Under the pieces are notes generated by a model. That model saw nothing but the letters and a program-made list of their open reading frames with translations, ran no database searches and was not told the origin of the DNA. The translations under genes and the position numbers were made by a program. A stretch of DNA of 64,000 bases, taken from assembly GCF_964213995.1 (NCBI RefSeq), contig NC_135801.1, positions 145,576,001-145,640,000 on the forward strand. The letters run 5' to 3'. Source of the DNA: Mustelus asterias (Eukaryota). Shown here piece after piece: positions 2,633-52,100 of this stretch (the stretch's first letter is position 1; the number at the start of each line of letters is the position of its first letter).

Positions 2633-3440
2633 GATATTGGCATAAAGGTAAAATAGTAGAACGTGTTAATGGGAGAATAAAGGTCAGTGTTCAGTGAAAG
2701 CAAAACTTAAGAACAAGTGACAGATGACCCAATGGGGTGGGGGAGGGCTGTGCCTTTGCATTGGGACAAAAACGATTTAAAAGGGGGGGGTCAAGATGGA
2801 GAGGAAAGTTCCCAGTCTGAAGTTGTTGAACTCAATATTGAGTCACGAAGGCTGGAACGTACCTAATCAGAAGATGTGTTGCTGTTCCTCCAGTTTGCAT
2901 TGGGCTTCATTGGAACATTGCAGCAGGCCAAAGATGCACATGTGGGCATGAGAGCAAGATGCTGAGTTGAAAGGCGAACAACAGGAAGGTTTGGAGCCTG
3001 CTTGTGGACTGAGTGAAGGTGTTCCGCAAAGTGGTGACCTATTCTTTTTCCAGTGTAGAGGAGACCACTTTAGGAGCATTAGACCAAATTGAAGAAGGTG
3101 CAAGTGAGGTCCATGGACAGTGAGGAGGGAGGAGGATAATGGGCAGGTGTTGCCCCTTCTGCGATTGCAAGGAAAGGTGCCATGGGAAGGACTCTATCAT
3201 GGTTCAGGGAAGGAGGGGAAGGGATGAGGGCAGAGGTGTGGGTGATTGGTCGGACACGGTTGAGTGCCTTTTCAACCTTTCAAAGACAGATATGTCAGAA
3301 GCACTGTTTTTGAAGGTAGCATCATCGAATCAGATGTGACAGAAGTGAAGAAACTGGGAGAATGGGATGGTGCCTTTACAGGAAGGAGAAGTGTGAGGAT
3401 CTGTAGTCGAGGTAACTGTGGGAATTGGTGGGTTTGTAAT

Positions 3441-3791
3441 GGGGCGGCACGGTAGCACAGTGGTTAGCACTGCTGCTTCACAGCTCCAGGGTCCCGGGTT
3501 CGATTCCCGGCTCGGGTCACTGTCTGTGTGGAGTTTGCACATTCTCCTCGTGTCTGCGTGGGTTTCCTCCGGGTGCTCCGGTTTCCTCCCACAGTCCAAA
3601 GATGTGCGGGTTAGGTTGATTGGCCAGGTTAAAAATTGCCCCTTAGAGTCCTGGGATGTGTAGGTTAGAGGGATTAGCGGGTAAATATGTGGGGGTAGGG
3701 CCTGGGTGGGATTGTGGTCGGTGCAGACTCGATGGGCCGAATGGCCTCCTTCTGCACTGTAGGGTTTCTATGATTTCTATGATTTCTATGA
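3441..3791 (+). mobile_element. Full-length HE1-type V-SINE, tail A
   Basis: GGGGCGGCACGGTAGCACAGTGG head through (TTTCTATGA)3 tail; near-identical to copies at 1098, 11152 and 44797. Confidence 0.92.
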
Positions 3792-4912
3792 ATATTGGTG
3801 GTCAGTCCACCACTGGAATTGGAGACAGAGAGGACAAAGAAGGAAAGTGAAGTTTCGGAAAAGGTGAGAGGGGGTGGAAATTGAAAGCAAGATCAATAAT
3901 TGTTTTCCAGGTCCAGACAAGAGCATATAGTGGCACTGATACAGTCATCAGTGTAACTGAAAAAGAGGTGTTGCAGGGGTTCGGAATAGAACTGGAACAA
4001 GGAATGTTCTACATACCCAACAAATAGACAGACATAACTCTTCAGCTCTGAAGAAGAGTCATACAGACTCAAAATGTTAACTCTCTTTCTTCCTTCATAG
4101 ATGCTGCCAGATCTGCTGAGTTTATTTCAGTTTGATTTCAGATTTCCGCCATCGGCAGCATTTCATTTTTATTTACCCCCTCAACAGGTTGTCATTACAG
4201 TGTACAAACCCATTCACTGTTTCTCTTTATATTAAAATACCGACATTTACTTGCATCGGCCACCTGTCTGCCCATCTCCCCAAGTGCTGGCTTCTTAAAG
4301 TTTTGTTTTACAGGCATTCTTGCTCCTTATCAAATCCATAATTACTACTAATTAGTCCCTCCCCACCACACCCCTCCTCCCCCTCCCCTTCCCCACCACC
4401 CCTGGCAAAATATCTGTCTCTTTATTCCCCATGTGACAGGTCTAATTGTTTTTTCCCTAAATGCAGCCAATATAAGTCAAGTAACAATATCCTTATCCCT
4501 GCTGCTCGCTTTTTTAAAAAATATTGAAACGCACTCAGGCATTTGACTAAGGGTTCATTAATGAAAAAGCTTTAAGCTTGCCGGGTAAATGGAGAAAGGC
4601 TATTCCAGTCACATTTAAGTCTGCAGCCGGGGAATGGATGGAGGCTGCGCTGGTGCAGTGTGCATGTGGAGTGTGGGGGTATCACAGAGCAACGCGACGT
4701 ATCACCAACGCAACCACCTACCATTTCTGCATTGCAGAATTTTCTTTTTGACTCCGTCCATTTTTATTTCACATATAAAGCACAATAGGTTGTCAATATA
4801 ATCGACTTACTTTCCTCTCTCTTTCTTTTGCTGTAATTCTCCCTCTCTCGTTAAAGGTAAACGCAAAGATATGATGGGCCTGCTTTCGTTTTACTGTTGA
4901 GGTGTTTGCACT

Positions 4913-5091
4913 ATGAGGATTTGCAGGATGGTTCGCATGGCGAGTGTGCTGGGCTTGGTGATGCTAAGCGTCGCTCTGCTTATTCTATCATTGATCAGCT
5001 ATGTTTCACTCAAAAAGGACAACCTCTTCGCCACTCCGAGATACCTAGGCTCAGCCGGCCCGAGGCTCTATATGTTACACAGTGGATTTCG
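4913..5091 (+). CDS. ST8SIA3: ST8SIA3 exon 1 (cytoplasmic tail + transmembrane anchor), 179 nt
   Basis: MRICRMVRMASVLGLVMLSVALLILSLISYVSLKK... matches the vertebrate ST8Sia III N-terminus; donor CG|GTAAGT at 5092. Confidence 0.95.
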
Positions 5092-7274
5092 GTAAGTAAA
5101 TAATTTTTTTAAAATTTAAATTCCAAAATCAACAGAATCTGTGCAACAAGGGAAAAAAATAGACGTGTTGTCAGTTTGCAGCCCCCTTCCCCCCACATTG
5201 TTTCCCAATTGATTAGCTATTGGTTCTAGACTTCAAATCCAAAATCTATCCCCCCCCCTCACCCCCTTCGGTATTATTTCTAGTAATAATCGTATTGTCC
5301 GAAAGAGGCACGCAGCTCCCTGCAACCTGGCAGGCGTACAAGCATCTTTCTGTGTGTGTGTTGATCCTGACATGTTCGTCTCTCCTTCCTCCCCCCCCCC
5401 CCCCCACCCCCTCCCAACTAATTCCCCTCTCACCCACCCCTCTCTTCAGGTACCACGATTAAATCGGCATGTTTTAGATCTATACCCCGCCTATCACGTC
5501 GTTTCATGGAAAATAACAAGGTTTAGGGGGGGAGGGGATGGGGGGGGGGGTGGTGTCACTCTACCAGATGTTTGCGGCATTCATGGATTGTAGCCCATTG
5601 CAGAATGATGTGCAGCTGTCTGTCGCTTTGTTATCCGCACAGTGGCCCTTGCTGGGCCTGGAGCTGAAGCTCCACGGGGTGGAGGGGAGCGTTGGGGGTC
5701 CCTCCCTACCTCCCTTCCCGGGGGAGGGGGGGGTTCCTCTGGGGGACAGATTATTTCCCACAGCACCGTCATCCCGAATTTAAGAGAGGGCTAAATGCTT
5801 CATTCGGAAGTGTTGCTGTATGACTGTGTGCGTGTGTGTGTGTGTGTACATATATGTGTGTGTGTATATGTATATATAAATAAAACAAAATTACAGTTGT
5901 CTAGGTTCCATTGTGATGACCAATATGCTCAATGTTCTATCTGTAAAACAAGTAACATCTACGCTGTGCAAAAGGCTGCAGGGTTGCTGGTATTGGCAGG
6001 CAGGACCCGCACAATTTCTGCACAACTGACTTGAACATTCACATTTACAGACGAAATGCAGAGCTTGATGGGGGGAGCGTCACGAACAAGTAAGCATATT
6101 CCTTCACAAAATACAAGGGATCTGATTTAGTGCCTTATTTTTTTGTGAGGCCCTTCCAAGGGTGTAATTAATTGCCTCGCCCAGGCACAATTCTAATATT
6201 ACCTATTCTATGCCTTTCTTAAGACCTGTTATCAAAATTCAAGTTGAAAAAAATTACTGATAGCACAACATTCTTCATCTTACATGGATATCAAAGGATA
6301 TGTGTTTTAAATATTCCTGTAAGTAATTCGGGGTTTTGGAGTGGGGGGGGAGGGGGGGCGGGGACGGTTGGACGGGGTGGTGGGGGGATGGTTCTTACAG
6401 TTTCTGGAATTGAGATGCGACTTTTCAAACGAGCTATGATTGTTTCTCCAATCTTGTATGCCCCATGGTGCTGATCGACAGTGAAGGTTCCTTTACACAG
6501 ACAGCAACTTACATTTGTATAGTGCCTTTAACGTGGTTAAAATATCTCAAGGTGTTTCACAAGGAAGTAATCAGACACAAAATGACATGGAAACACTAGA
6601 ATGGGCATCTCAAAGCTTGGTCAGGGAGGTAGGATTTAAGAAGAGTCTTCAAGGGGAAGAGGTATAGGGGAGGGGTTCAGAGCTTGGGGCCTATTGGCTG
6701 AAGGCATAGCAGCCAATAGAGGGGGAAGGAAACCAGCATGCACAATGGGTCAGAATTATGACAATAAACCTTACTGCAATCTCAGTAAAAGAGAGAAGAT
6801 TCGACTACAGATAAATATTTTAACAAAGCCAGTAGAACAATCCAGTGTAAAATCAAGCAAATTTAAAATTAACAACTCGATTAGCAGAACAGGTGATGAG
6901 TTCTATTGGTCAAAAATAGAAATGCAGTCGATGATATTAAATCCATTTTTACTGAGCTAGCTAAATTAATGGAACTAGTTTGAGCACCATGCATTTCAAA
7001 GGCCCTTCATAAAGAAGACTTGTATCTATATAACATGTTCTACAATCTCAGGACATCTCAAAGTGTTGACAGCCAATGAACCACTGAACTTTTGTAACGT
7101 AGTCACTGTTGTAATGCACGAAAAATGGATTCATGACTCAACATATTGACACTGTTTCATATTCACCTATTGTTAATTTGGTACTCCTCCACCTTCCAAC
7201 ACCTTCCATCCTTTTGCCCTTTTCTAACATTCGGAGAATGGGACTGCAATGGTCAGATCAGATTTGATTTTTTT

Positions 7275-10105: not shown

Positions 10106-10267
10106 TTCTCAAAGGGCCTTTTTGTTTCCAAGTTTTTTTTTCTACAGTTTAAACTTACTGAGGAATGTGTTTTTCCCCTGCAGTCCTAGAAGTGTGCATT
10201 CTGAATTCAAACCCATTGCCGAGAATGAACTGAAGTAACTCGTTCTTTTATCTTTTTTTTGTTTTAG

Positions 10268-10825
10268 GAAAGACATCAGTCGTTATGTCGACATTTATAA
10301 AAATTTTACCTTGGTTAAGAAAAGTGTGCGAGTTGGACAGTTGCTGCACTATGACTATTCCAACCACAAATACGTGTTTTCAGTCAGCAATAGTTTCCGA
10401 TCATTACTCCCCGATGTGCCCCCTATCTTGAAGATGCACTACAACACTTGTGCAGTGGTGGGGAACAGTGGGATCCTCATCGGCAGCCATTGCGGAGCTG
10501 ACATCGATAAGTCCGATTTCGTGTTCCGCTGCAATTTCGCGCCAACTGAATCTTTCGAGAAAGACGTTGGCAGAAAGACCAACCTCACGACCTTCAACCC
10601 GAGCATCCTCGAGAAGTACTACAACAATCTATTAACAATCCAAGATCGAAACAAGTTTTTCCTGAATCTTAAAAAGCTGGATGGAGCCATCCTTTGGATC
10701 CCCGCTTTTTTCTTCCACACGTCCGCTCCGGTGACAAGAACGTTGGTAGATTTTTTTATAGAGTACAGAGCCCAACTGAAGGTTCAGTTGGCCTGGCCTG
10801 GGAATATAATGCAACATATCAATAA
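10268..10825 (+). CDS. ST8SIA3: ST8SIA3 exon 3 (sialylmotif L), 558 nt
   Basis: Acceptor TTTTAG|G; CAVVGNSGILIGSHCGADIDKSDFVFRCNFAP...DVGRKT is sialylmotif L; donor AA|GTAAGT at 10826. Confidence 0.97.
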
Positions 10826-10872
10826 GTAAGTATGGTTTAAGGGGAATTTATACGAAGATTCAAATTGAAAGT

Positions 10873-11526
10873 GGGCAGCACTTTTGACATTACAGGGGGT
10901 GGCACAGTGGTTAGCACTGCTGCCTCACAGCACCAGGGACCTGGCTCCGATTCCCGGCTTGGGTCACTGCCTGTGCAGAGCTTGCACGTTCTCCCCGTGT
11001 CTGTGTGGCTTTCCACCCACAGTCCGAAAGACATGCGGGTTAGGTGCATTGGCCATGCTAAATTCCCCCTCAGTGTACCCGAACAGGCGCCAGTGTGGCG
11101 ACCAGGGGAATTTCACAGTAACTTCATTGCAATGTTAATGTAAGCTTACTTATCATAGAAATCATAGAAACCCTACAGTGCAGAAGGAGGCCATTTGGCC
11201 CATCGAGTCTGCACCGACCACAATCCCACCCAGGCCCTACCCCCACATATTTTACCCACTAATCCCCCTAACCTATGCATCCCAGGACTCTAAGGGGCAA
11301 TTTTTTTAACCTGGCCAATCAACCTAACCCGCACATCTTTGGACTGTGGGAGGAAACCGGAGCACCCGGAGGAAACCCACGCAGACACGAGGAGAATGTG
11401 CAAACTCCGCACAGACAGTGACCCAAGCCAGGAATCGAACCTGGGACCCTGGAGCTGTGAAGCAGCAGTGCTAACCACTGTGCTACCGTGCCGCCCATTT
11501 TTACTTGAATAAATAAACTTTACTTT
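10873..11526 (+). mobile_element. Tail-B V-SINE whose tail is split by the SINE at 11152-11496
   Basis: Head/core at 10873-11080; tail stops at GTAAGCTTACTT (11151) and resumes TTACTTGAATAAATAAACTTT at about 11500-11526. Confidence 0.8.
11152..11496 (-). mobile_element. Full-length HE1-type V-SINE, tail A, nested antisense in the tail-B SINE
   Basis: ATCATAGAAATCATAGAAA tail to GTGCCGCCC head. Confidence 0.92.
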
Positions 11527-12080
11527 AGTTCTATAGATATTCTAAGGATAGTTCATGCTATTAATTCCAGTTATAATCTTTGATAACACAAATGCTGGTG
11601 TCACTGTTTCTCATTTTAACCTGTTGATGTTTTCTCTTTGTTTGCCCCCAATCTTAGAGTAGTCCAACAGTACAGAAGAGGCCCTTCAACCCATCAAGTC
11701 TGCACTGACAAAACTACACTAAATCTACACTAATTACATTTTCCAGCACTTGGCCCATAGTCTTGAATGTTATGATATTTCAAGTGCTCACCCACATATT
11801 TGTTAAAGTTTGTGAGGTTTCCCGCCTCTACTACCCTCCCAGGCTGTGCATTCCAGACTCCCACCACCCCCTGGGTGAAAATACATCGCCAAATCCCCTC
11901 TGAACCTCCTGTCCCTCACCTTAAAATAATGTCCCCTCGTTATTGACCTTTTAGCTAAGGGGAGCAGCTGCTTCCTATCCACCCTGCCCTAACCCCTCAT
12001 AATCTTATACACCTCAATCAGGTCTCCCCTCAGCCTGCTCTACTCTAAAAAAAAACAACGCAAGCTTATCCAGTCTCTCT

Positions 12081-12419
12081 TCATAGAAATCATAGAAATC
12101 CTACAGTACAGAAAGAGGCCATTCAGCCCATCGAGTCTGCACCGACCACAATCCCACCCAGGCCCTACCCCCATATATTTTACCCACTAATCCCTCTAAT
12201 CTACGCATCCCAGGACACTAAGGGGCAATTTTTTAGCATGGCCAATCAACCTAACCCGCACATCTTTGGACTGTGGGAGGAAACCGAAGCACCCGGAGGA
12301 AACCCACGCAGACACGGGGAGAATGTGCAAACTCCGCACAGACAGTGACCCAAGCCGGGAATCGAACCCAGGTCCCTGGAGCTGTGAAGCAGCAGTGCTA
12401 ACCACTGTGCTACCGTGCC
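12081..12419 (-). mobile_element. HE1-type V-SINE, tail A
   Basis: Reverse-complement head, core and TCATAGAAATCATAGAAA tail. Confidence 0.9.
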
Positions 12420-12613
12420 TTTATAGCTCAAAAGCTCTATCCAAGGCAACATCCTGGTGAATCTCCTCTTCCTCTCCAGTGCAGTCACATCCTTCCTATA
12501 GTGAGGTGACCAGGACTGCCCAAAGTCCTCCAGCTGTGGTCTAACCAAAGTTTTGTACAGCTCCAACATAACCTCCCTGCACTAATAACCTATGCCACAA
12601 CTAATAAAGACAA

Positions 12614-12924
12614 GGGCGGCATGGTGGCACAGTGGTTAGCCTCACACGCCAGGTTCGATTCCTGGCTTGGGTCAGTGTCTGTGTGGAGTTTGCACATTCT
12701 CCCCGTGTCTGCGTGGGTTTCCTTTGGGTGCTCCGGTTTCCTCCCACAGTCCAAAAGAAATGCAGGTTAGGTTGATTGGCCATGCTAAATTGACCTTAGT
12801 CTCGGGGGGATTAGCAGGGTAAACATGTGAGGTTACGGGGATGAGTTGGGATTGTTGTTGGTGAGGCTCGATGGGCCAAATGACCTCCTTCTGTACTGTA
12901 GGGATTCTGTGAAATAATCTATGA
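12614..12924 (+). mobile_element. HE1-type V-SINE, tail A (older, internal deletion)
   Basis: GGGCGGCATGGTGGCACAG head, core and GGATTCTGTG tail. Confidence 0.85.
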
Positions 12925-15222
12925 AGTGTCCTGTATGCCTTCTTAACTATCCTATTAACCTATCCTGCTACCTTCAGGAATCGATGGGCAAGCATTCTGT
13001 TTCTATGAGCTTCCTTGTATCCTGCCATTCATTAAGTACTCTGCTGTCTTGTTATTCCTTCCAAAGTGAATCACCTCACACTTTTCATGGTTAAATTCTA
13101 TCTGCCAATGCTCTACCTATCTGATCAACCCGTCTATATCTTCCTGCAACCTAAGACCTTTTTGCTCATCATTAACCATGCTGCCAATCTTCATGTTATC
13201 TGCAAACTTACCTACCAACCCTCCCCCCCGCCCCTCCCACATACACACATGTTCTCATCTATATTGTTTATGTATATTATATATATGTGTGTGTGTGCTT
13301 GTGGGTGTGTGTGTATCATGAACAATAAGGGATCTAGCACTGATCCCTATGGTACACCACTGGACACCGGCCTCTAGTCACACAAACAGTCTTCGACCAC
13401 CATCCTCTGTTTGCTATCATTCAGCCAGTTTTGGATCTAATTTGCTGAGTTACCTTGGATCCCACTGCTTCAACCTTCTCAATCAATCTCCCATGTGGGG
13501 CTTTGTCAAAGACTTTGCTGAAATTCATACAAACCACATTAACTGCACTGCCCTCATCTGCATACCTGATCACCTCTTCAGTCAAATTTGTTAGGCATGA
13601 CCTCCCTCTGACAAAGCCAGGCTGACTATCCCTGATCAAACTTTGCATCTCCAAATAAAGATTAATTCTGTCTTTTGGAATTTTTTACAATAGTTTCCCT
13701 ACCCCTGATGTGAGACTCACTGGTCTGTAACTCCCTGGTTTATCTCTACTACCGTTCTTGAAAAGTGGAACCACTTTAGCTCTCCCCCAATGCTCTGGCA
13801 TCTCCCCTGCCGCCAGAGAGGAATTTAAAAAATGGGTCAGAGCTCTTGTTCCTTGGGTTTGGTTCTGTACTTACTTCAACCATATTAATTGGTTACATTC
13901 TCCAAAAAACTGTTCAAAACCTTGCTTTCAAATGTATCACTCATCCCATATCGACCAGAAGTCCAGAAACAAAGCTGCTGTGGTAACTTTTTATTCGCCT
14001 GACTGTTTACCACGAGAAGTGACATTTGTATCATAGTGAACACCATTTTAAAAAATCATGTTAAAGCTAAAAATAATCACAGGCGTGGGCATTAAAAAGC
14101 ATTTTATCCGCTAATCGCTCAAATATTTCTCCACATGTTCCAATGCGGGCAGAGCTCAGATCGACCCGCTCTCAGAGCCTGCACAGAACGATCCCCCAAC
14201 TCCAATTCCTGGGCGCTGCTCGTCACGCGAGCCTCTTTTCTAGACCCCATCGTGGACCATCCATGACATTCTCCCCGCCCTCTTGCTGTATCCAAATACC
14301 CTGAGCATCTAATAAGGCCCTGGCACCCTTCCCTCCCCTGGACTCACTGACCTCCAAGTTCCACCACCCGGGAAATTCTACTTTGTTACCTGGTCGCAAG
14401 TTAAGCTACTGCCCAATCCACAATCCAGAGAATACATATAACCGTCCCCAACCACCCCCCCCCCCCCGCCCCCACCATCCCCCACCATTCTCTTAGAATG
14501 CGGTACAATTCTGAATATTGGACTCATGAACTATTAAGTGTTTATTTAACCAAGGTAGGACAGGCAAATCATTCACCTGCTAGAAATTTGTACAATCATT
14601 TGCAATGCTGGATTCAGAATAATGTGTTGAATGTTTATGCAGTCATACCCATGGCGTCCCCCCTACCACCTCCCCCCCCCCCCCCCTCCCTTTAGTCATG
14701 TAACCCTTGTCTTAAACGCAGGTCCCAGACTTTTCCACACCTTCTCAAACCATGGCTACATCAACCACACTACGGCACAGGAAACCGAGATGGTTTACAC
14801 TCGGAGAGAGAGGGGGAAGTGAGAATGTTATCAAAGGTTTGAAGTCCTAATCTATCTTCCGGTGATAAGGGATTTTGTGAGTGCCGGATATTAAGAAAGA
14901 GAAATAATTCGTATAGAGAACCCACACAGAGCGTTACACTGGGAATATAAGAATGTAAAAGAGGCAGTGTGGGAACAACGGTGGAAAACAGTGGACGCGG
15001 GGGTACACGAAGGGAAAGTGATAGAAAGACGTAAAGGGAAGGAGTAGAAGATACATTAACGTACAAAGCCTGGGGGGTGGGGGGTGAGGAAGGAGGGGGG
15101 GGGTCAGAAACGATTCAGAAAGCGAGAACTGTTTTTCATGAAAAATAAATCCACTGTACATTCCTTCCGTTCTAGTTGAAAATTTGTTTTGTGAACTTTT
15201 CTGTTGCTTTATCGTTAAACAG

Positions 15223-15508
15223 ATATTGGAAAACCAAACAACTGGCGCCAAAGCGGCTAAGTACGGGCATCCTGATGTACACGCTGGCTTCTGCCATTTG
15301 CGAGGAGATTCACCTGTACGGATTTTGGCCTTTCGCCTGGGATCCCAACACAGGAAAGGAACTGCCATATCACTACTATGACAAAAAGGGGACCAAATTC
15401 ACTACCAAATGGCAGGAGTCCCACCAGCTTCCCGCAGAATTCAAGCTGCTGTTCAAACTACACAACGACGGCTTGACCAAGCTGACTCTTTCACATTGTG
15501 CCTCTTAA
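15223..15508 (+). CDS. ST8SIA3: ST8SIA3 exon 4 (sialylmotifs S, III, VS; stop), 286 nt
   Basis: Acceptor TTAAACAG|A; STGILMYTLASAICEEIHLYGFW (S), HYYD (III), HQLPAE (VS), ends LSHCAS*. Spliced CDS is 1146 nt = 381 aa with consistent phases. Confidence 0.97.
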
Positions 15509-28357: not shown

Positions 28358-29480
28358 ATGAACAACGCGTATAGATGTATAGCCAAAGAAGTATATACCA
28401 TGAACCCGGAGATTACAATGGACAGCATTGGGAATTTGCATGGTGGAATAAGCCATGAGCAATCCACGGGCGATCTGATGAACAGTCACCAGCGGCAGGC
28501 AGTTTCAGCGGCTCACCGGGAACTGACGAGTAGGTCTGCCATGGTTTCCAGCATGGCTTCCATCCTGGACGGGGCTGGGGATTACCGGCCGGAGCTCTCC
28601 GTCCCGCTGCACCCGGCCATGAGCATGGCGTGCGAGTCACCGCCCGGGATGGGCATGAGCAGCACTTACACCACCCTGACCCCACTCCAGCCCCTGCCTC
28701 CCATCTCCACCGTGTCGGACAAGTTCCACCACCACCACCCGCATCACCATCATCATCACCATCACCACCACCACCACCAGCGGCTGGCGGGCAACGTGAG
28801 CGGCAGCTTCACCCTGATGCGGGACGAGAGGGTCTTGCCCGCCGCCATGAACAATCTCTACGGCCCCTACCACAAGGACATGTCCGGGATGACACAGAGC
28901 CTCTCCCCCTTGTCCAGCAACCCCCTGGGGAACGGCCTGGCCTCCATCCACAACAGCCACCAGAGCATCCAGGGCTATGGCTCCAACAGCCACGACAAGA
29001 TGCTGGCCGGCCCCAACTTCGACGCTCACACGGCCATGCTGGCCCGGGGCGAGCAGCACCTGTCCCGGGGGCTGGCCGCCCCCACGGCGGGCATGATGCC
29101 TCACCTGAACGGCATGCATCACCACCATCACCACCACCACGGTCACTCGAGTCACCACCAGTCTCACGGGCCCGTGTTGGCTTCGAGCCGGGATCGGCCT
29201 CCCTCCTCCTCGGGCTCCCAGCCCAACAGCTCGGCTCAACTGGAAGAAATTAATACCAAAGAAGTCGCACAAAGAATCACGGCGGAACTCAAGCGCTACA
29301 GCATCCCGCAGGCCATCTTCGCCCAGAGGGTGCTGTGCCGCTCGCAGGGCACCCTCTCTGACCTTTTAAGGAACCCCAAACCTTGGAGTAAACTTAAATC
29401 GGGTCGGGAGACCTTCAGGCGGATGTGGAAATGGCTGCAAGAACCTGAGTTCCAGAGAATGTCAGCCTTAAGGCTTGCAG
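28358..29480 (+). CDS. ONECUT2: ONECUT2 exon 1 (TP/STP box, poly-His tracts, CUT domain), 1123 nt
   Basis: N-terminus AYRC...MNPEITMDS.G.LHG typical of ONECUT2; TYTTLTPLQPLPPISTVSDKFHHH; CUT domain EEINTKEVAQRITAELKRYSIPQAIFAQRVLCRSQGTLSDLLRNPKPW...; donor GCAG|GTAAGT at 29481; adjacency to ST8SIA3 supports orthology. Confidence 0.95.
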
Positions 29481-32400
29481 GTAAGTCAAGAGCGAACAAT
29501 GCAATGTGGGTCCAGTTTATGAGGGAAGAATTGGTTTAGTTACTGCTACTGAGATAGGGGTGGGGGGGGGGGGGCGGGGGTAACAGTAAGGGTACAGAGG
29601 AACCACAACCATTGCTGTTAATATTTGCTATCCTCTCAGTTCCTCCACAAGGGGATATTGATTGGAGCTGTCTTTTTCTTTGTGGTCAGCTGCACCCGTT
29701 AGCAGCACTGAAAGGTGCTGGTTCTCCATTGCACCCACTGCGGCTCTCACTTCAGCCTTCCCCTTGGTGTGATGTTCGCACAATAGCTCTGTAATGAGGC
29801 AATTCCACATTCCCTCAATGGAAGGACACACCCACAACAGTAACGTGGAACGGCATCAACATCCGATTACCATTCAATTAATGCACCTTAAAATCCACTG
29901 AAGGATATAGCGTTCATTCTCTCTCTCCCCCACCCCCTGTGTTTGATGAACAGCCGTAGTTACACTATGCAAAATCCTAGCCTGTTTAATTCATGAGAGG
30001 ATCACCCCCCCCCCCCCCCCCAAACATACACACATCCTTTGTAACACCGCAGCCTTTATTCTCTTAACTGTTGTAGAGAGATCTGGAATAACTAAAAACA
30101 GACCATTGTTGTCTGCGCCCTCGCTCACGCCTCAGCTCTGCATCGGACTTGAGATATTGGACCGATTTCTCACACCATACGGTTACTTCTCAAAGGCAAT
30201 GGAACGTCTCCTGCAACGCAATTATTTCTTCACAGGATTCTGCCGCTGGGCTTTTTTGTTGTTGTTTTGCCCTGTACAAATGGGTGAAGGAAAGTGTAAC
30301 TAGTCTAAATGCTGCTTCAAGGCTGGAGAAGTTTGCATGGTGCCCAGTGACTAATCCCTGAGCTATTTTGCATCTATTTAAACGAGTAGCTGAGAGAGTG
30401 CAGTGTGATAAGTGAAGGGTCGTTTTGTTGTGGTGAATCTCAGCCATTCAGTGTCAGTGGAGAGTGGGAAGCCGGCGGAATCGCATCTCTGCCCTCTAGC
30501 GTCGGCACTTGCCTCTCCAATCTCAGCCCCTTCCCATTGTGTCTGTTTGAACGCATAAAATTGTATATGTCTGCGGCCAGGGACTGTTTAAGACAATTGA
30601 AGTCAATGAACATTCCTAAATGTAAAGGCCGACCAAGGGCATTTTGCCCCTTAAATCTCCTTTAAGGCTTTATTATACATACCGCCCTACAAAACAAATG
30701 AGTGGAAGTTAACATCTGATTACAATGGGGGAGCATTCATCACGAGAGTTAATTTCATTTCAATATATATGTAGAAAATCCGCTCTTACTTTCCCCCGAT
30801 AAAATATCACCGTCCCGAAACGCACGGCGCGGAGACCAGTCATTTAACCTTCGCGCCCCAGAAGGACAATGGAAGGAGCATGCATTACAATATCTAACTC
30901 GATTGCATGTCTTTATTGGACTGCGTAACGTGATCGCACCAGTGAATATGCACATTCTGAGGAGATAATTCTGTTTTAAATTGAGGGGGGAGCTTGGGGG
31001 GGGGGGGGGGGTGCAAGCAGTGATTCGCGGCTATATTAGTTACCAGCACAGATCAGAGGAAAATGCACCTCAGGTCTGTACGATGTCTTGACTTTTATAT
31101 ATAAGAAAACATGCAGGTATAAACTTCATGCTTATGTTTATTTACCTGAAGAGCATTAACAGCCGTGCATTATAGACACTGTTTGTTTTCATGTCGCCCG
31201 CTGTCAATATCTGCTTGGACAAATCACAGGCGATGTTGGATACCGAGGTCACGTGGTGTAATTGCTGTAATTACTTTTTCCAATTAAACTTGGCTTTACC
31301 TTGTATTTAATTGATAACTGTATCTTGATGCAGTAAGCCACAATACCGCGGTGCACTGTGTGCGTGACTGCCTGCAAACATTTTTTCCCCTTACATTTAT
31401 ACTTTATCATATAATTTACCACAAGGTTAGGAGATCCTTTTATCTTTCTTTAAAAAAAGGGTAAGAAATTTGATTGCTTTTCAAGATTGCAACACATACA
31501 CGGGAGAGAGGGGTGGATATGGAATTATTTTGAACCATTTAGTATGCCCTGCCAGGCAAATATGTTGAGATATTTGAGATCAAAATTGGCGAGTATCACC
31601 GTACTGGAATGAAGTATATACAATGGGTATGTGTAGGTGTTGAGCAACCTGGGTCTGTCTGAATGATGCTGTAGCTATTAGTCTATCTATTCTCCCGACC
31701 TGAAACGGTAGGAGAGACATTTTGAAGCAGTTTACCTATCAAATCGTGTTTCGGATTACATTTTCGTTTTTTTTAAAAGACTAACACTATGATTGCTAAA
31801 CAAACAAAAGCATCAAACCATAAAACAAAGCCACGCATTAGGGGCTGACAGAGAAAATAAAATAACCATACTGCAATTTAGCATTCGCATTTAATGCAGT
31901 TGTGTTACTTGATTGCGCTATTATTAAGGAATTTCGCTCCACAACCCTCGCGATCAATCCTGATTTGAATAATTAAACTGGTTTTTTTTGCTCGGCTGAT
32001 TTGGCATTTGCAGACTGAATCGCAAACAAAAACAAAAGAACAACAACTTGGGCAATGATATATTTTTAAATAGTCCCTCTCATGTGAATCAACCCGCCGT
32101 GGGAGCCGCGTCCATTACCCTAGAATAAACGACTTCAGATGCTGCTGCCCCACCAATGCTGTAGCACGAATCGCAAGGTATATATTCTCACAACACTTCA
32201 TTAACTCCGGGCGAACGCAGAGTAGGAGATTACAAGAGCAAAGGGACAACAACAATTCATCCAGCCCACTTGAGGCGAGCAGAGTGTGAGATCTTCCTCT
32301 AAACGATGTTGCTGCTAATTTTTGAAACATTTTATTTGTTAAAATGGTTTTTTTTGGGGGGGGGGGGGGGCGGTGCCGTAGCTGAGTTCTCCTTTTCTTT

Positions 32401-45256: not shown

Positions 45257-46171
45257 CCTTAAATTCCAAGCGCAATTTTATTTTCCGTGAGCAAAATGAT
45301 ACTAAAAGTAAAGATTAATCAGTCCACCTGTCTTCTTTGCTGTTTGTGAGAATACTTCAACGTGATTGGCTGCTTACCCAATTTGGTGACATCATTGTTG
45401 CTAGCTGCCTGGAAATCTCTTTGACCTGGCCTCAAATTCAAACTAATGCCAGGACAGGGAAGATTCATGGAGACCGCTTTGTGAGCAGCATCCTTCGAGA
45501 TCAGCATTGAGCACCGAAGCTTCACCGCTGATTGCAGAATCTGCACCAATAGGTGTATCACACCAGAACTAGAGCAGTGTGGGAGGCAAGTACGGGGTGT
45601 GGTTGGAGCTAGCCACATTTCCCACTTACGGTGGTTATCTAGTGATTCTTGGAAATTATGCATGTTGGGCTTTAGGAGAAAATAGTATTGGATTTTGGTT
45701 AACAATTCATTGAAAAGTCTGGAAGAGTTATTGCTTACACATTATTAATGGTCAGAGTACCAGAAAGCACTCAACATTCTTAGAGCATGTCCTGAAGCAG
45801 GACTGAGAACCTTTAAAAGAGAAGAAAATAGTTAAAAGAATAAAACAAAACACACAGGGAATGATTGTGTAGTAATCAGTGCACACATTTATTGCAGTAC
45901 TTAGGTTTACCTTAGTGCAGACATGTTTTGCAATCAAACAGTTAGAACACTGGTCAACAAAATAAGTGCCTTGATCATTTCCGTGTTTATTGCCATCAGT
46001 TGATTTCCACTCCACCCTAGACCCCCCTTCCCAAAACGCATTGAGTAATTCTAAACCTCAAATAAATCAATATGATATTTTATGGAAGATTCACTATTGG
46101 AGAAACAAACTAGGGTCAGTCCGTTTCTATAAATTCTCAACATTATTCTCTTTTCTTTTTTTTTATCCCAG

Positions 46172-46464
46172 CGTGTAAACGCAAAGAACAAGAACAGAAC
46201 AAAGAGAAGAGCAATACACCAAAGAAGCCACGGCTAGTTTTCACTGACCTCCAACGCCGAACTCTTTTTGCCATTTTCAAGGAAAATAAACGCCCTTCCA
46301 AAGAGATGCAACTCACGATCTCACAACAGCTCGGTCTGGAGTTGACCACCGTCAGTAATTTCTTTATGAACGCCCGGAGGCGAAGCTTGGACAAATGGCA
46401 GGACGAAGCCATGTCGAGCCCAGGGGCATCATCGTCGACCTCAAGCACTTGTACCAAAGCATGA
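46172..46464 (+). CDS. ONECUT2: ONECUT2 exon 2 (atypical homeodomain, stop), 293 nt; absent from the ORF track
   Basis: Acceptor (T)nATCCCAG|CG; ACKRKEQEQNKEKSNTPKKPRLVFTDLQRRTLFAIFKENKRPSKEMQLTISQQLGLELTTVSNFFMNARRRSLDKW...STCTKA*, with the Onecut F48/M50 signature (FFMNARR). Spliced CDS is 1416 nt = 471 aa. Confidence 0.97.
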
Positions 46465-49400
46465 TTGAGGACAGTGCACCTGAACAGGGCACAACTCAAC
46501 ACCTTTTTTTTTTGCTTTTGACGAGGCTGTTCAGTGGTGAGTGCATAAGCACAATCTTGATCAATACATTCAAACCAATAAAGGGAAGACACATATTTCT
46601 TAATGTGTCTGGCTTAAGATTTCCCCTTGAATCAATTTGGAGTCCTTGCTATAAACTGACAACGAAGCTGAGAGTCTACTTGGTGAATTTCCAGAGATCA
46701 TCAGACATGGCACAACGAGCTATGTTGCTGAGCAATAATATGTCTAGTGCTTTGCCTGAAGAGTTTTAACTGTGCTAAAATAATCATTAGATAATGAGTT
46801 GATTTCAGTTATCAGTTTCTGGCAATGATATGCAGTCATTTTTGATACGGTAAACTAGTACACTGAAAGTAATTGACCGGCCATTTTGATTATTTTTAAA
46901 TAGAAGCCTCAGTAGAATTATTGGAGAACATTTTGTACAATCATGCAATCTCATCACTAACCAGACTGTTTAAGAATGGGCTGTTAGTGGTAAGTATGCA
47001 AGCACAAAATATCAAAGTCATTTTCAGAGACTTTCAGTCCGTCATTAACACAACACAAATCTTGAATGATGCTGGTAAACGTGCCCTCACTGCTATATTC
47101 ACCCATTGGGTGGAGCTGTTGGTGGTGGGAATGCAAGCACAACCTTCAAGCACATTCCTTCTAATCAACAAATTCCTGAGATTTTGTAATACCCATTCAT
47201 GTGGTCTGCTTCATTTTGTTTTCAGAAGATACCAGGGCCATTAGGTTTAGAAGGCAGTTGTTTGCTGCAGGAAGAATAAATACTGTTTGTCTTAATAGCT
47301 GTAGATTACTATGCATCCATTCTATTCAATACTTATATTCTATTTTTGGCCAACACTGGTTTACTACTGCAAACGCACTGAGTAGCCCATGTGTAAAGGG
47401 GTGGGGGGGGGAGGGGGGGGGCTGCCCATGGTGAGTGCAGAAGCACAAACATTAAATAGCTTTATTTTTCCTGAAACGCAACATCATCACCCCTTCTTCC
47501 AACATGTGCACATTCACCACTGAACAGGCCCTCTAAGAACACCATTGATGTGTTTAAAGGCAAGCCAAAGGCTTTAAAGACTCTCGTGAAGACACTTGAT
47601 ACTTTTTTTTCTATTTATTATTAAATCGAAACCAAAGAAACTTTTTTCTGCACCTAATTGTTCTGCAACAAACTTTTAAACAAAAGAAGCACGTCAGGAA
47701 ACAACATACGCACTGTGTTTCAATGGTTGTCTTAGTCGTTTTGGGAAGCAGAGTTACGAAAGGGTTAACAAGAAAAATAACAACAACAAGGGAGCAATGC
47801 CACGGATCATTGCTGCTTCATTTGACGACACTTGCCACCTCTTAAAGTTGAATATTGTCTTTAACGTGTGCCTATGCAGTTTTTCAGAAACGTTGTACAG
47901 AACAACAGAAAACCTCTTCCGCTTCAACCAAAGTCAGCTTCACAGAGACATGGATCTGTTTGTAGTTTTTATGCATTACAGTTGAGTGCTGTTTGCACAA
48001 TTGGCCTGTCTTTCAATGTTCGTCTTATTGAGAGAGGGAAGTACCCACTCGGTTTCACAATTTCCTCCCAATTAGCGATTCCAATGGAACAGGATACCAA
48101 CCAATGGATCCAAATGGCTCCAAGCACAAGATGTTAGGGTGAAGATTAAACACCTCTACCAAAGATAGTAACCCACTCCTATACCTCAGTAAAGGTAACT
48201 AAATATGGGAGGGTTTTTTTTTACTGAATGTTGCATTACATTAGCTACTAAACATTACCATGATCTCAGCCATATATATTAAGCAAGTATTCAACATAGC
48301 CAATGGTTCTACTCAAGTTTGGATAATTTAGGTGAAATATAGCTTTTAATTTGTAATTTTGATGATTTAATCTTTTGTAAATTAATGCATTTCATGCAAT
48401 ATTAATATATTCCAAATTATTTGACTTGTGTTGTTTATCTAGTGTAGTATGTATAAACTTTTTATTTTGAAATGTGATAATTATTTATTTTAAAGATTCA
48501 GATTCAATTGATCCCTAGATTTTAAAAAGTTCACTCTTCATCTTAAGCACAATAGAACCCCCTGGTTATGTTTGTTGGTGAATTTAGTAAATGATTACAA
48601 TAGCTAATACATCAATTGTACTTTAACCTAAATATCTTATGAGTTTCTCATTCATTGATAGACATTTAGCTCAGCGTCTTGTGCATGGAGTCCATGCGCA
48701 CGTCCAAGATGAGTTCAACTTTGAAGAATATCAGGAGTCTACGATAATTTTACAACAAGAAGACAGTGCAGTATTGGTATACTGTAGTCCAATAGCTTTA
48801 TCCAAGCATGTGGAAGCTTTTATCCTTAAACAAAGCTATATCCAAAGAAACCAAACCGATCGGACCAGCAAACTGAAGGTTGACCCCACAGAGAGAATGA
48901 CAGTACTTTCACTGTGTGGCTATTATTGTTTTGTACCAACTCAGCTATTAGAAAAATGCCATATTGTGGTAACAAGTTCAGACAGTTGACAGTGATGTTT
49001 TCATTGCTCGTCACAATACCCACAGGCCGTGTAAATGATTTAATTAACACAAGTTGATTTCTAAACAAGTTAGCAATTTTTAAAGTGCTTGTGACTGTAG
49101 TTTAGAAATCAAAAAGCTACATCAGCTTTATTATTATTTGTATTATTTTTGGTATTTATTGTGAACTATATATTTAAGTGCTGAATTTTCTCTTATTTAT
49201 CAAGTATTAAAATGAAAGTTGCAGTGCTTCAGATAGCCTTTAATCATATTGTCTGTTTTATTTTATAAAGTAACAGAGATTAATTCCTTTAATGTTGATT
49301 TATTTTGTTAGAAAAAATTACAAATTACGACTGGGAGTAAAATTGCACATGCATTGATATACACCTAACACAACTCCAATCCTGTATCCTATAAAATTCA

Positions 49401-52100
49401 TAGAAAAGGTTCGGTGATTTTGGTTTTCAAAATTCTATTAACAGACATTCTTTAGAGTTGAACATTATATTTTTGTGGAAAAACTACCTGAGCCAATATC
49501 CCAACATATTTTAATTATTGATTTTTAGATTTTGGCGCCTTTAAGCACTGCAACTTTTATTCTCAATTTTCAATGCCAAAGAATTATCCCACTATAAGCA
49601 CTGAAAGATATCCCTTCAGTCTTATTATTAATGACATGGATGAGCAATGATTTTAGATGGAACAATACAGTATGTACTGATGAGAACGTGAATACACAAC
49701 AGAAAATACTTTAATGATCTTTCCACCATTGTTTAGCGCTGTGTCCAAATGGCTTTAGATAGCTTCTTTCGATTGCGGAGAAGTCTTTAGCGTTAGTGAC
49801 AAGAGACAGAAAAAAAACCCTGAACTCGCTGCTTCCAGGTATGAACTATGTGTAAAAGCTCTTTCTATTTCTAGTGAGAACCAAAGAGGCTACCTCACTG
49901 AATTTTTCCATTTGTAATTTTAATCGCGTCGATGATACCAAAGATACCAAAGATTTCTTTCTCTGCACGGTCTGCATTTTGCTCCTGCTCATGTATAGAG
50001 TGTCTCTTAAATACAGCTGCAACTCAGATACCCCAAAGATCTAAATGGTGGTCGCACTCATTCAAAATGTGTGTTTTTTCTGTGCTGTAAAAAGATAATT
50101 TCCTCATTAGAATCCATCATCAAGAGGCCAAATATACCATGTCCATTCAGTGTATCAGTGAACAATAATTTTTGGACTTACAATCAATAACTTTTCAAAG
50201 AACAGCTAATGTCACCAGCGCTTTGTTGTATTGTGTTTATTATCAGTATAGGTGCAAATTATGCAGCAGTTTTGATCGGAATTTATGTAAAATAATTTTT
50301 ATTTCACTCTATGGGAATGCTGCTTTATCAAATTCTATGAAACCAAAATGAGTTAAAGCTTCTAAAATAAACCCAGGAATCTCAGCACAAGCTAGGGCCT
50401 GTAATTACTCTCATATTGTAGCAAAGTGAAAAGTGGCAGATATAACTGCTGTGATGTCACTCAAATTCTTTGTTCAGCTAGCACTGTCTGTATGCTGATT
50501 TTGTTCATATGCAATGCCCTTTTAAAATTTTATTATTAACCTGCAATTCCAAATTCCAGCAAGAAAAAACCCTGAAGTTAATATTTTTTAAAAATTGTAC
50601 GCTGAACTCACTACCATTGCATAGGCTCTTCCAGCTGTCCTTTATGATTTATAGAGGAATTTTGGGTCAATTAAAACATTTGTGATTTGCTGGCTGTTCT
50701 AAATAGCGCTATTGTCCCTCTTATATAATTAATCAATAATTATAATTGTACTAACAAGTAATTCAAATTTACTTCATAACAAATGGCACAAGTTTGTTTA
50801 GGGCATTAAATTTCTTTCGATCTACTTGTATAAACTGTACCCTTGCAAATTTCAGTTAATCAGTTTGCTTTTGCAGCACTGGGTGGAGGGGGTGGGGGTG
50901 GACCTCCGCTATGTAATGTTACCAAAGTCATTACATTTTCATTTAGATGAGAAAAAACCTCTCCTGTGCTGTAAAGATTGATTTGCATTCAATTGAATTC
51001 ATACTGTATGTACTAAGATAATACCAAACCAAACCAGTGCCTAGATTGTCTGATGCTTTAGATCTTTATTAGCTGTAACATGCGCACATCATGTTGCATT
51101 TATGAACACACAGAAAAAAAATAAACAAACACACATCCCGAATCAGTCACCACCATTACCAAAATACCTGTACTCAAAAGAAAAACGAAAATCTAGATGC
51201 ACGCTTTAGTTGCAAAGTGTGATAAACCACGGGACGAGTGCCTTGCTTGAACCAAAGCGGTGTTTCTTTCCAGTTTCTAGACCTCTGTGCATTTTTTTAT
51301 TCCTGTGAATACCTCAGCTTCGAAAAGGCCACCAATTTTTTTATTGCTGGTGAGCCCCTATACTGTGGTGCTTTGCAATGCAACCATGCAAAGAACTAAA
51401 CAAAGATACCAAAGTTTTCTCTCTATCTCAATCTCTATCCTCTCTTTCTCTTTAAGATACCAAAGCTTAAAAAAAATCTGATTGAGTAGGTTAGCAGAGC
51501 AGACCGTGCATTCCTTACCGAATTTTCTCAGATATACCTCATAGATAATAGTGTCTAGGGTGATGTTATTATAGCATATGTAATAAATTATTCACTCGTT
51601 TTTTGGTAACTGTGACTATGATATAAAAAAAAGCTTTATACGTTTTAAGTTGTGATTTTTGTAATAGGTGACAGGTGCGCTTATGGAAGGATTGTAAATG
51701 TTTCATGGAATTTGGGGAAGTTGCAGAACGAGCCCAAAGTTTACAGTTTTCATATTCTAAAGAAACAATCCGTTGTTTTTTTTTCCTTTGTGTGTATGTA
51801 TGTGTTTAAAATGCATTTATTTCCACATTGTCCTACATAGATTTATTGACTAATTGTTATGTGTTAAAAATGTAGTGTTAAGATTAGCAACTGCCAGTGC
51901 TATAATTTTATGCATGAGGCTGTATAAATTTAGCAAAGGTGATGCATTGTGATTATTGAGAGTAATATTTTTTAATTTAAGAAAATAGATTTTTTTTTCT
52001 TTTTTTAAAATAGATTTTATTTATGCATGAGAGCCTGTTATTTGTTAGACATTGTGGAACAGTTGTGTATATATTGAACTGTGAAAGCAAACGCAGTTGA
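46465..52100 (+). promoter_or_regulatory. ONECUT2: Probable long ONECUT2 3'UTR (3' end uncertain)
   Basis: Repeat-free, AT-rich, dense in sense-strand miR-218/miR-9/let-7 seed matches; AATAAA at 46577, 47275, 50366, 51120, 51582. Mammalian ONECUT2 has a very long 3'UTR. Confidence 0.6.

Follow-up and report, generated by a model that had tools for sequence, protein, structure and literature searches.

The 3' untranslated region (UTR) of ONECUT2, an early neuronal identity factor and prostate-cancer driver, carries an array of seven miR-218 sites. With roughly even confidence, we read it as an array whose likely role is ordinary repression of ONECUT2, in which four sites add 3' pairing below the level of a degradation trigger and fold-back strands of the same mRNA are predicted to limit sites 1 and 5. 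The regulatory pair miR-218/ONECUT2 is already known. The architecture is apparently undescribed, and a literature search (which also drew on PMC7961372, PMC3650559, PMC8887481, PMC10620050 and bioRxiv 2026.10.02.755877, with subscription papers mostly outside its reach) found no published description of the module, the U1-like block or the helices set out below.

The two-exon ONECUT gene in the window (the whole 64,000-nucleotide stretch of DNA analysed here) is, judged by its predicted protein, ONECUT2. Homeodomain residues DLQ..LFAIF, KEMQ and LELTT fit ONECUT2 (8t0f) and not HNF6 (2d5v), although by overall score 2d5v stands slightly above 8t0f. C24 and C26 each hold a paralogue, one resembling ONECUT1 and the other ONECUT3 in its residues; the ONECUT3 label is our assumption. 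Exons of a sialyltransferase-like gene at 10239-15508, upstream of ONECUT2, belong to what we take to be ST8SIA3, presumably syntenic with ONECUT2. On the other side, the UTR region probably ends where LINE and SINE-like repeats set in, at about 53700. The coding exons are as follows:

28358..29480, + strand: ONECUT2 coding exon 1 (CUT domain), from its open reading frame, with the donor GT at 29481
46172..46464, + strand: ONECUT2 last coding exon (homeodomain), through the stop codon, from its open reading frame, the diagnostic residues and a putative RNA contig start at 46171/46172

To place the array relative to the transcript, four sequencing runs of relatives (other species; three runs putative RNA, one putative DNA) were aligned over 45300-49500. 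The putative RNA runs had zero depth in the intron bins 45582-46145, where the putative DNA run had a depth of 11, and the putative RNA contigs start at the acceptor, 46171/46172. Two of these contigs carry 217 and 750 extra letters that map elsewhere, as would a spliced exon 1. One X16 contig is continuous over 46172-48729 and spans all seven miR-218 sites, and no splice joint within the UTR is listed in the relatives' contigs over the aligned interval, contigs being of a kind that drops rare forms. The first-pass annotation had placed the array within the mRNA, and so it appears: putative RNA contigs of three relatives cover the UTR without the intron and show the miR-218 stretch as unspliced ONECUT2 3' UTR. 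The sites, and a hexamer among them, are:

46526..46554, + strand: module 1, with GCTG flank, TGGTGAG block and the 8-mer at 46547
46980..47007, + strand: module 2, with the 8-mer at 47000 and the top U1 match of the UTR, G/GTAAGTAT
47115..47142, + strand: module 3, with the 8-mer at 47135
47148..47154, + strand: miR-218 7mer-m8 without module, AAGCACA
47421..47448, + strand: module 4, with the 8-mer at 47441 and miR-218 nt 12-13 and 15-20 paired
47451..47456, + strand: ATTAAA hexamer (putative poly(A) signal), between module 4 and the masking strand of helix 1
48122..48129, + strand: site 5, a miR-218 8-mer without module, predicted to be buried in helix 2
48545..48552, + strand: site 6, a miR-218 8-mer without module

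The 8-mer AAGCACAA lies at 46547, 47000, 47135, 47441, 48122 and 48545, and AAGCACA at 47148, exactly where the earlier annotation had put them. Its estimate that well under one copy would be expected by chance also stands: six were seen in 46468-48560 versus 0.15 expected (P about 1e-8). AAGCACAA is the most over-represented 8-mer of this interval; dinucleotide shuffles gave a mean of 0.11 copies, at least four copies in 0 of 2000, and six copies of any complex 8-mer in 0 of 2000. The miR-218 sequence quoted earlier is identical to the genome's own, which is encoded at two loci. Seed-match excess, 3' UTR position and a host-encoded microRNA are all present and, on sequence grounds, mark this mRNA as a putative multi-site miR-218 target. 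Regulation of Onecut mRNAs (OC-2 and HNF-6) by miR-218, also cited in the annotation, is reported by Simion et al. 2010 (PMID 19913497), to judge by the title.

Four of the sites share a 28-base module, GCTGN{4,5}TGGTRRGN5AAGCACA, in agreement with the pattern noticed at first; those at 47148, 48122 and 48545 are without it. The full pattern has 4 matches in the 3.68-Gb genome, all within this array. The module is absent from the paralogues ONECUT1 and ONECUT3, whose miR-218 sites number 2 and 1 in 7 kb. A shorter pattern has 121 genome matches, 84 of them copies of one dispersed repeat in which the miR-218 8-mer follows TGGTGGG in the module's register. A repeat origin of the module was rejected because these 84 matches come from a single repeat with unrelated flanks and without GCTG. 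A 20-mer of the same sequence on C12 is not flanked by GCTG, and no other miR-218 site is present in 7 kb there. Separately, GTGC-n4-GCAC in modules 1 and 4 (46541-46552 and 47435-47446) could fold into a tetraloop hairpin, its stem 4 bp long, that covers the seed match.

The TGGT block had been said to match the 3' half of the microRNA, and it does so in a single fixed register, with nt 12-13 and 15-19/20 paired. In all four modules TGGT pairs with nt 15-18 at offset +2, nt 19 is paired (three wobbles, one Watson-Crick) and nt 14 faces a purine and is unpaired; nt 12-13 are paired, nt 13 in 3/4 modules (one by wobble), while nt 20 is paired in module 4 only and nt 21 in none. Finding TGGT at one shared offset in 4/6 8-mer sites has P about 1e-7. 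For the site at 47441, the eight pairs claimed within nt 12-20 are there, the longest run being only 6. Duplex energies of the modules were -16.7, -18.8, -20.2 and -19.5 (best 8, 3, 1 and 2% of background), and those of the SSR1 and TRIM9 triggers -24.3 and -22.6. With Watson-Crick pairs overlapping nt 13-16 and a small offset, the modules would class by sequence as 3'-supplementary sites. The unpaired nt 14 is the centre of the usual 13-16 supplementary region and counts against our main reading. The best 3' pairing is reported to follow G/C runs and may lie beyond nt 13-16 (McGeary et al. 2022, PMC8940178), and pairing at C16-C17 fits this rule. AGO-miR-218 would thus dock via the seed and then pair nt 15-19/20 and 12-13 at offset +2.

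The blocks that would pair with the microRNA are themselves predicted to be paired within the mRNA, a point not raised in the first-pass annotation. Three strands are involved:

47505..47533, + strand: masking strand of helix 1, complementary to 46523-46547, with 14 perfect pairs plus flanks
48669..48694, + strand: masking strand of helix 2, complementary to 48114-48140 including the site 5 seed match
46944..46970, + strand: predicted partner of module 2 in a local hairpin, an alternative partner being at 47372-47401

Helix 1 is predicted at -38.6 kcal/mol, with a pairing probability of 1.0 in a 1.24-kb fold; it would loop out about 960 nt and cover the GCTG and 3'-pairing block of module 1, leaving most of the seed match free, so that site 1 would act as a seed-only site once it had formed. 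Helix 2, predicted at -36.0 kcal/mol, would hide site 5. These two energies exceed the best and second-best stems of shuffled sequence (0/60 reach them). Among natural controls, 4/13 stretches (three intron pieces and one paralogue piece) have stems of -36 or better, the top control stems among those listed being G/C runs or repeat copies, and by chance alone the two top helices would both overlap a site with probability 0.057. A partner as good as that of module 1 was found in 0/100 shuffles; the partners of modules 2, 3 and 4 are local and weak, with 4, 10 and 1 of 100 shuffles as good. The 3'-pairing blocks of the modules are predicted to be unpaired with values of 0.01-0.25, G-rich words in general being paired too (mean 0.21). 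This predicted pairing inside the mRNA counts against the main reading. When the 47505-47533 strand was left out of the fold, exposure of the module-1 and module-4 blocks rose from 0.01 and 0.25 to 0.31 and 0.52. Among the changes listed in the relatives, that at 46961 is next to the bulge of the module-2 hairpin and that at 46965 coincides with its mismatch; a third, at 46522, would lengthen helix 1 by one pair, provided the partner base has stayed the same. We take these as hints only. Two further observations concern folding. A wobble-rich long-range helix between 47101-47127 and 48286-48316 (about -28 kcal/mol) over the module 3 flank is not in the minimum-energy fold, and GTGCAC..CTGAACAGG at 46473-46489 resembles the distal masking strand 47506-47528 and could pair locally with module 1 before the distal strand is made.

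The GCTG flank, which lies upstream of the block, is not a product of chance, since a 4-mer common in register to four random UTR places turned up in only 12/100,000 trials. The first-pass annotation had left it unexplained. Predicted intra-mRNA pairing now partly accounts for it, and part remains without explanation: the flank was likely kept because it would lengthen the helices closing over the 3'-pairing block, and the differing partner strands mean that an identical GCTG in four copies is not fully explained. Pairing of GCTG with a 3'-extended miR-218 or with the precursor loop was rejected, as only module 4 exceeds background (0.03). No shared GCUG/UGC hairpin is predicted inside the module, and we know of no second microRNA seed that fits GCTG. 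The four modules probably descend from a single site that was duplicated locally long ago. In the spacer, 9/10 letters agree between modules 1 and 4, and further upstream 9/10 agree between modules 2 and 3; likeness ends at the last base of the seed and near GCTG, and flank identity (5-12/30) is at background, so the module has been kept longer than the sequence around it. The X15 contig shows no change in module 1, its 4 differences all lying behind the module. In X16, no change falls in module 1 among the differences listed, versus 10 listed in the next 87 nt (P 0.09 alone, not significant). The 32 of 80 metagenome loci examined included no ONECUT2 UTR of a bony vertebrate; the vertebrate-like loci among them were ONECUT1- or ONECUT3-type and the rest invertebrate-looking, and none held the array. 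A genome-contig search for bony-vertebrate ONECUT2 gave one weak 24-residue match, and viral contigs gave none.

Such an origin raises the question of whether only the seeds work, the upstream block being a relic of old one-site duplications and the helices functionless inverted copies. The shared 9/10 letters in each module pair are what copies would look like, descent from a single founder would account at once for the register, the purine at nt 14 and the GCTG flank, and three sites do without the module. Against this, the module has outlasted its flanks and module 1 is intact in X15 and free of listed change in X16, and we consider this account fairly doubtful. The block can also be read in another way, unremarked in the first-pass annotation: as TG/GTRRG it is a near-consensus U1/5' splice-site match. 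Scored against the genome's own U1, modules 2, 1 and 4 (-11.0, -10.3 and -10.3; the real exon-1 donor scores -12.1) rank 1st to 3rd of 358 GT positions in 6.5 kb. The block would then be a U1 snRNP site that works in the nucleus, where it would prevent premature polyadenylation or determine how much mRNA is produced, next to a miR-218 seed match used in the cytoplasm; the helices would mask the block. A purine at +3, which U1 prefers and where miR-218 wants T, is present in 4/4 modules (P 0.06), +6 favours U1 in 3/4, and U1 bound in a 3' UTR is reported to block polyadenylation (PMC3826338). However, part of this overlap is unavoidable, because a sequence complementary to miR-218 nt 12-17 resembles a donor site in any case. 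Module 3 comes no higher than tenth, all four modules have T at -2, which fits miR-218 nt 18 and not U1, and the UTR contigs of relatives show no splice joint. U1 gives no reason for the fixed 10-nt distance to the seed, which speaks for miR-218 or for common descent. The idea that the block suppresses the AATAAA at 46577, behind module 1, was rejected, the hexamer not being conserved but changed in 3/3 covering runs. On balance a U1 role is quite unlikely.

Two further explanations concern the fate of miR-218 itself. The first-pass annotation had proposed a degradation trigger, and this was not borne out: pairing is too short, trigger scores are low, mouse miR-218-5p is flat and TDMDfinder gave no pair. 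The modules do combine seed pairing with a central bulge under 7 nt, as required for target-directed microRNA degradation (TDMD); the SSR1 and TRIM9 triggers are reported to degrade miR-218 in reporters (PMC8653786), and several sites reportedly can collaborate (PMC13041716). Yet the contiguous Watson-Crick 3' pairs of the modules number 4, 4, 4 and 6 (5, 5, 5 and 6 with wobbles) as against 8-9 in the known miR-218 triggers and the rule of more than eight consecutive 3' pairs given by Li et al. 2021 (PMC8653786). On our own implementation of the Lin 2026 trigger rubric the modules score 6.0, 4.5, 4.0 and 7.0, and known triggers 9-10. Among 3000 random contexts 196 reach 6, 57 reach 7 and 39% reach 4.5; the 7.0 of module 4 thus ranks with the best 2% of background, and the scores of modules 2 and 3, taken singly, are background-like. 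The TDMDfinder human table has no ONECUT2/miR-218 pair among the occurrences listed (9/16; its gene list states two interactions), the ONECUT2 pairs there being with one let-7-family microRNA and miR-9. None was present in the 12 of 14 Li 2021 supplement files searched, and ONECUT2 itself does not occur in four Helwak CLASH supplement files, which are therefore uninformative here. In a mouse E18.5 Zswim8 table, miR-218-5p appears once, in the levels sheet, and is outside the ZSWIM8-sensitive sheet; its paired columns read 3141/3225 in forebrain, 6707/6764 in hindbrain and 3324/3362 in eye. In the same table miR-7a (7024/20093) rises about threefold in forebrain, from which the genotype of the columns was deduced. 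The level of mouse miR-218-5p is therefore unmoved by ZSWIM8 loss, in bulk mammalian data that are neither from shark nor cell-type-specific. Degradation of miR-218 by these sites is unlikely, and that the modules jointly trigger it through ZSWIM8 is extremely improbable. Alternatively, the array could be a sponge that holds AGO-miR-218 with little repression of ONECUT2 and so frees other targets. In favour of this are the number of sites, seven, and the additional pairing of four of them. Against it, miR-218 is abundant (3000-6700 CPM in mouse brain), and a pool of that size is rarely titrated by the mRNA of a single transcription factor; the masking helices, moreover, would lower binding. 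A ceRNA role towards miR-9 and other microRNAs has been suggested for the human OC2 3' UTR (PMC10356556), in a paper whose accessible text lacks the string "218". A sponge seems very unlikely to us.

The preferred reading, ordinary repression through a partly masked array, has a more elaborate form that we hold only tentatively and rate as unlikely, in which the mRNA would carry its own target protectors. Antisense strands would zip over the 3'-pairing/U1-like block of site 1 and the seed match of site 5, so that the full-length tail resists miR-218; the four enhanced sites would be exposed together once the strands unwind or the tail is cut at the ATTAAA that precedes the first of them, and the same 8 bases could serve nuclear U1 and cytoplasmic miR-218. 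The preferred reading itself also draws on the report that full-length human OC2 mRNA resists miR-9 while fragments were reported to be sensitive (Steadman et al. 2023, PMC10356556), which fits masking, though for another microRNA.

A miR-9 array, of a kind known for Onecut genes (PMC10356556), follows the miR-218 array at 47600-51500, with 10 ACCAAAG sites in 7 kb; the two paralogues have 10 and 7. At 50012-50039 a miR-9 7mer-A1 is accompanied by an unbroken run of 8 pairs to nt 14-21, for which the offset is large (+8). It is the strongest miR-9 duplex of the UTR (-20.3), with a rubric score of 6.0; the Zswim8 table shows no rise of miR-9-5p in mouse neural tissues. In the distal UTR (about 3.4-5 kb past the stop codon), several miR-9 sites are embedded in blocks that hardly differ between the three paralogues and an ONECUT1 contig of a vertebrate (L006, L007, L040); these blocks must predate the paralogue duplications, unlike the miR-218 module. 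One such block, 51238-51258, joins a GTGCCTT word, which we take to be the miR-124 seed, to a miR-9 site. Four AGCTTTA words (47458, 48794, 49124 and 51632) match the seed of the miR-9 3p arm (L125).

If the helices are real and conserved, they would provide a concrete, mutable reason for the reported resistance of the very long tail to a microRNA with many sites in it, and a natural case of cis-masked microRNA sites; if not, ONECUT2 is a known target with many sites. In addition, four natural copies in one register offer a ready test of how the 3' half of miR-218 is used and of the reason such a site falls a single base short of triggering degradation.

Finally, several known systems can be set beside this array. 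Simion et al. 2010 (PMID 19913497) reportedly describe the same microRNA acting on the same gene via 3' UTR sites. The account of the ONECUT2 3' UTR as a long, structured, miR-9-resilient ceRNA (PMC10356556) shares the UTR, the site arrays and the idea of structure blunting repression, and differs in dealing with miR-9 in human; its accessible text names no helix and leaves miR-218 unmentioned. Terminal-exon U1 sites that inhibit polyadenylation (BPV and U1 interference; PMC3826338) likewise have a donor-like sequence in a 3' UTR; unlike them, the ONECUT2 block keeps a fixed distance to a microRNA seed, and its nearest AATAAA is not conserved. The SSR1 and TRIM9 miR-218 triggers (PMC8653786) resemble the modules in seed, central bulge and the same TGGT letters, but they pair 8-9 in a row to nt 21, whereas the ONECUT2 modules pair 4-6 and stop short. 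With the 3'-supplementary sites of McGeary et al. 2022 (PMC8940178) and Kosek et al. 2025 (PMC12038393) the modules share a perfect seed and 3' pairing that is G/C-centred (C16-C17) at a small positive offset; unlike those known sites, they are centred on nt 15-18 with nt 14 unpaired, and occur as four repeats in one register with predicted masking in cis.
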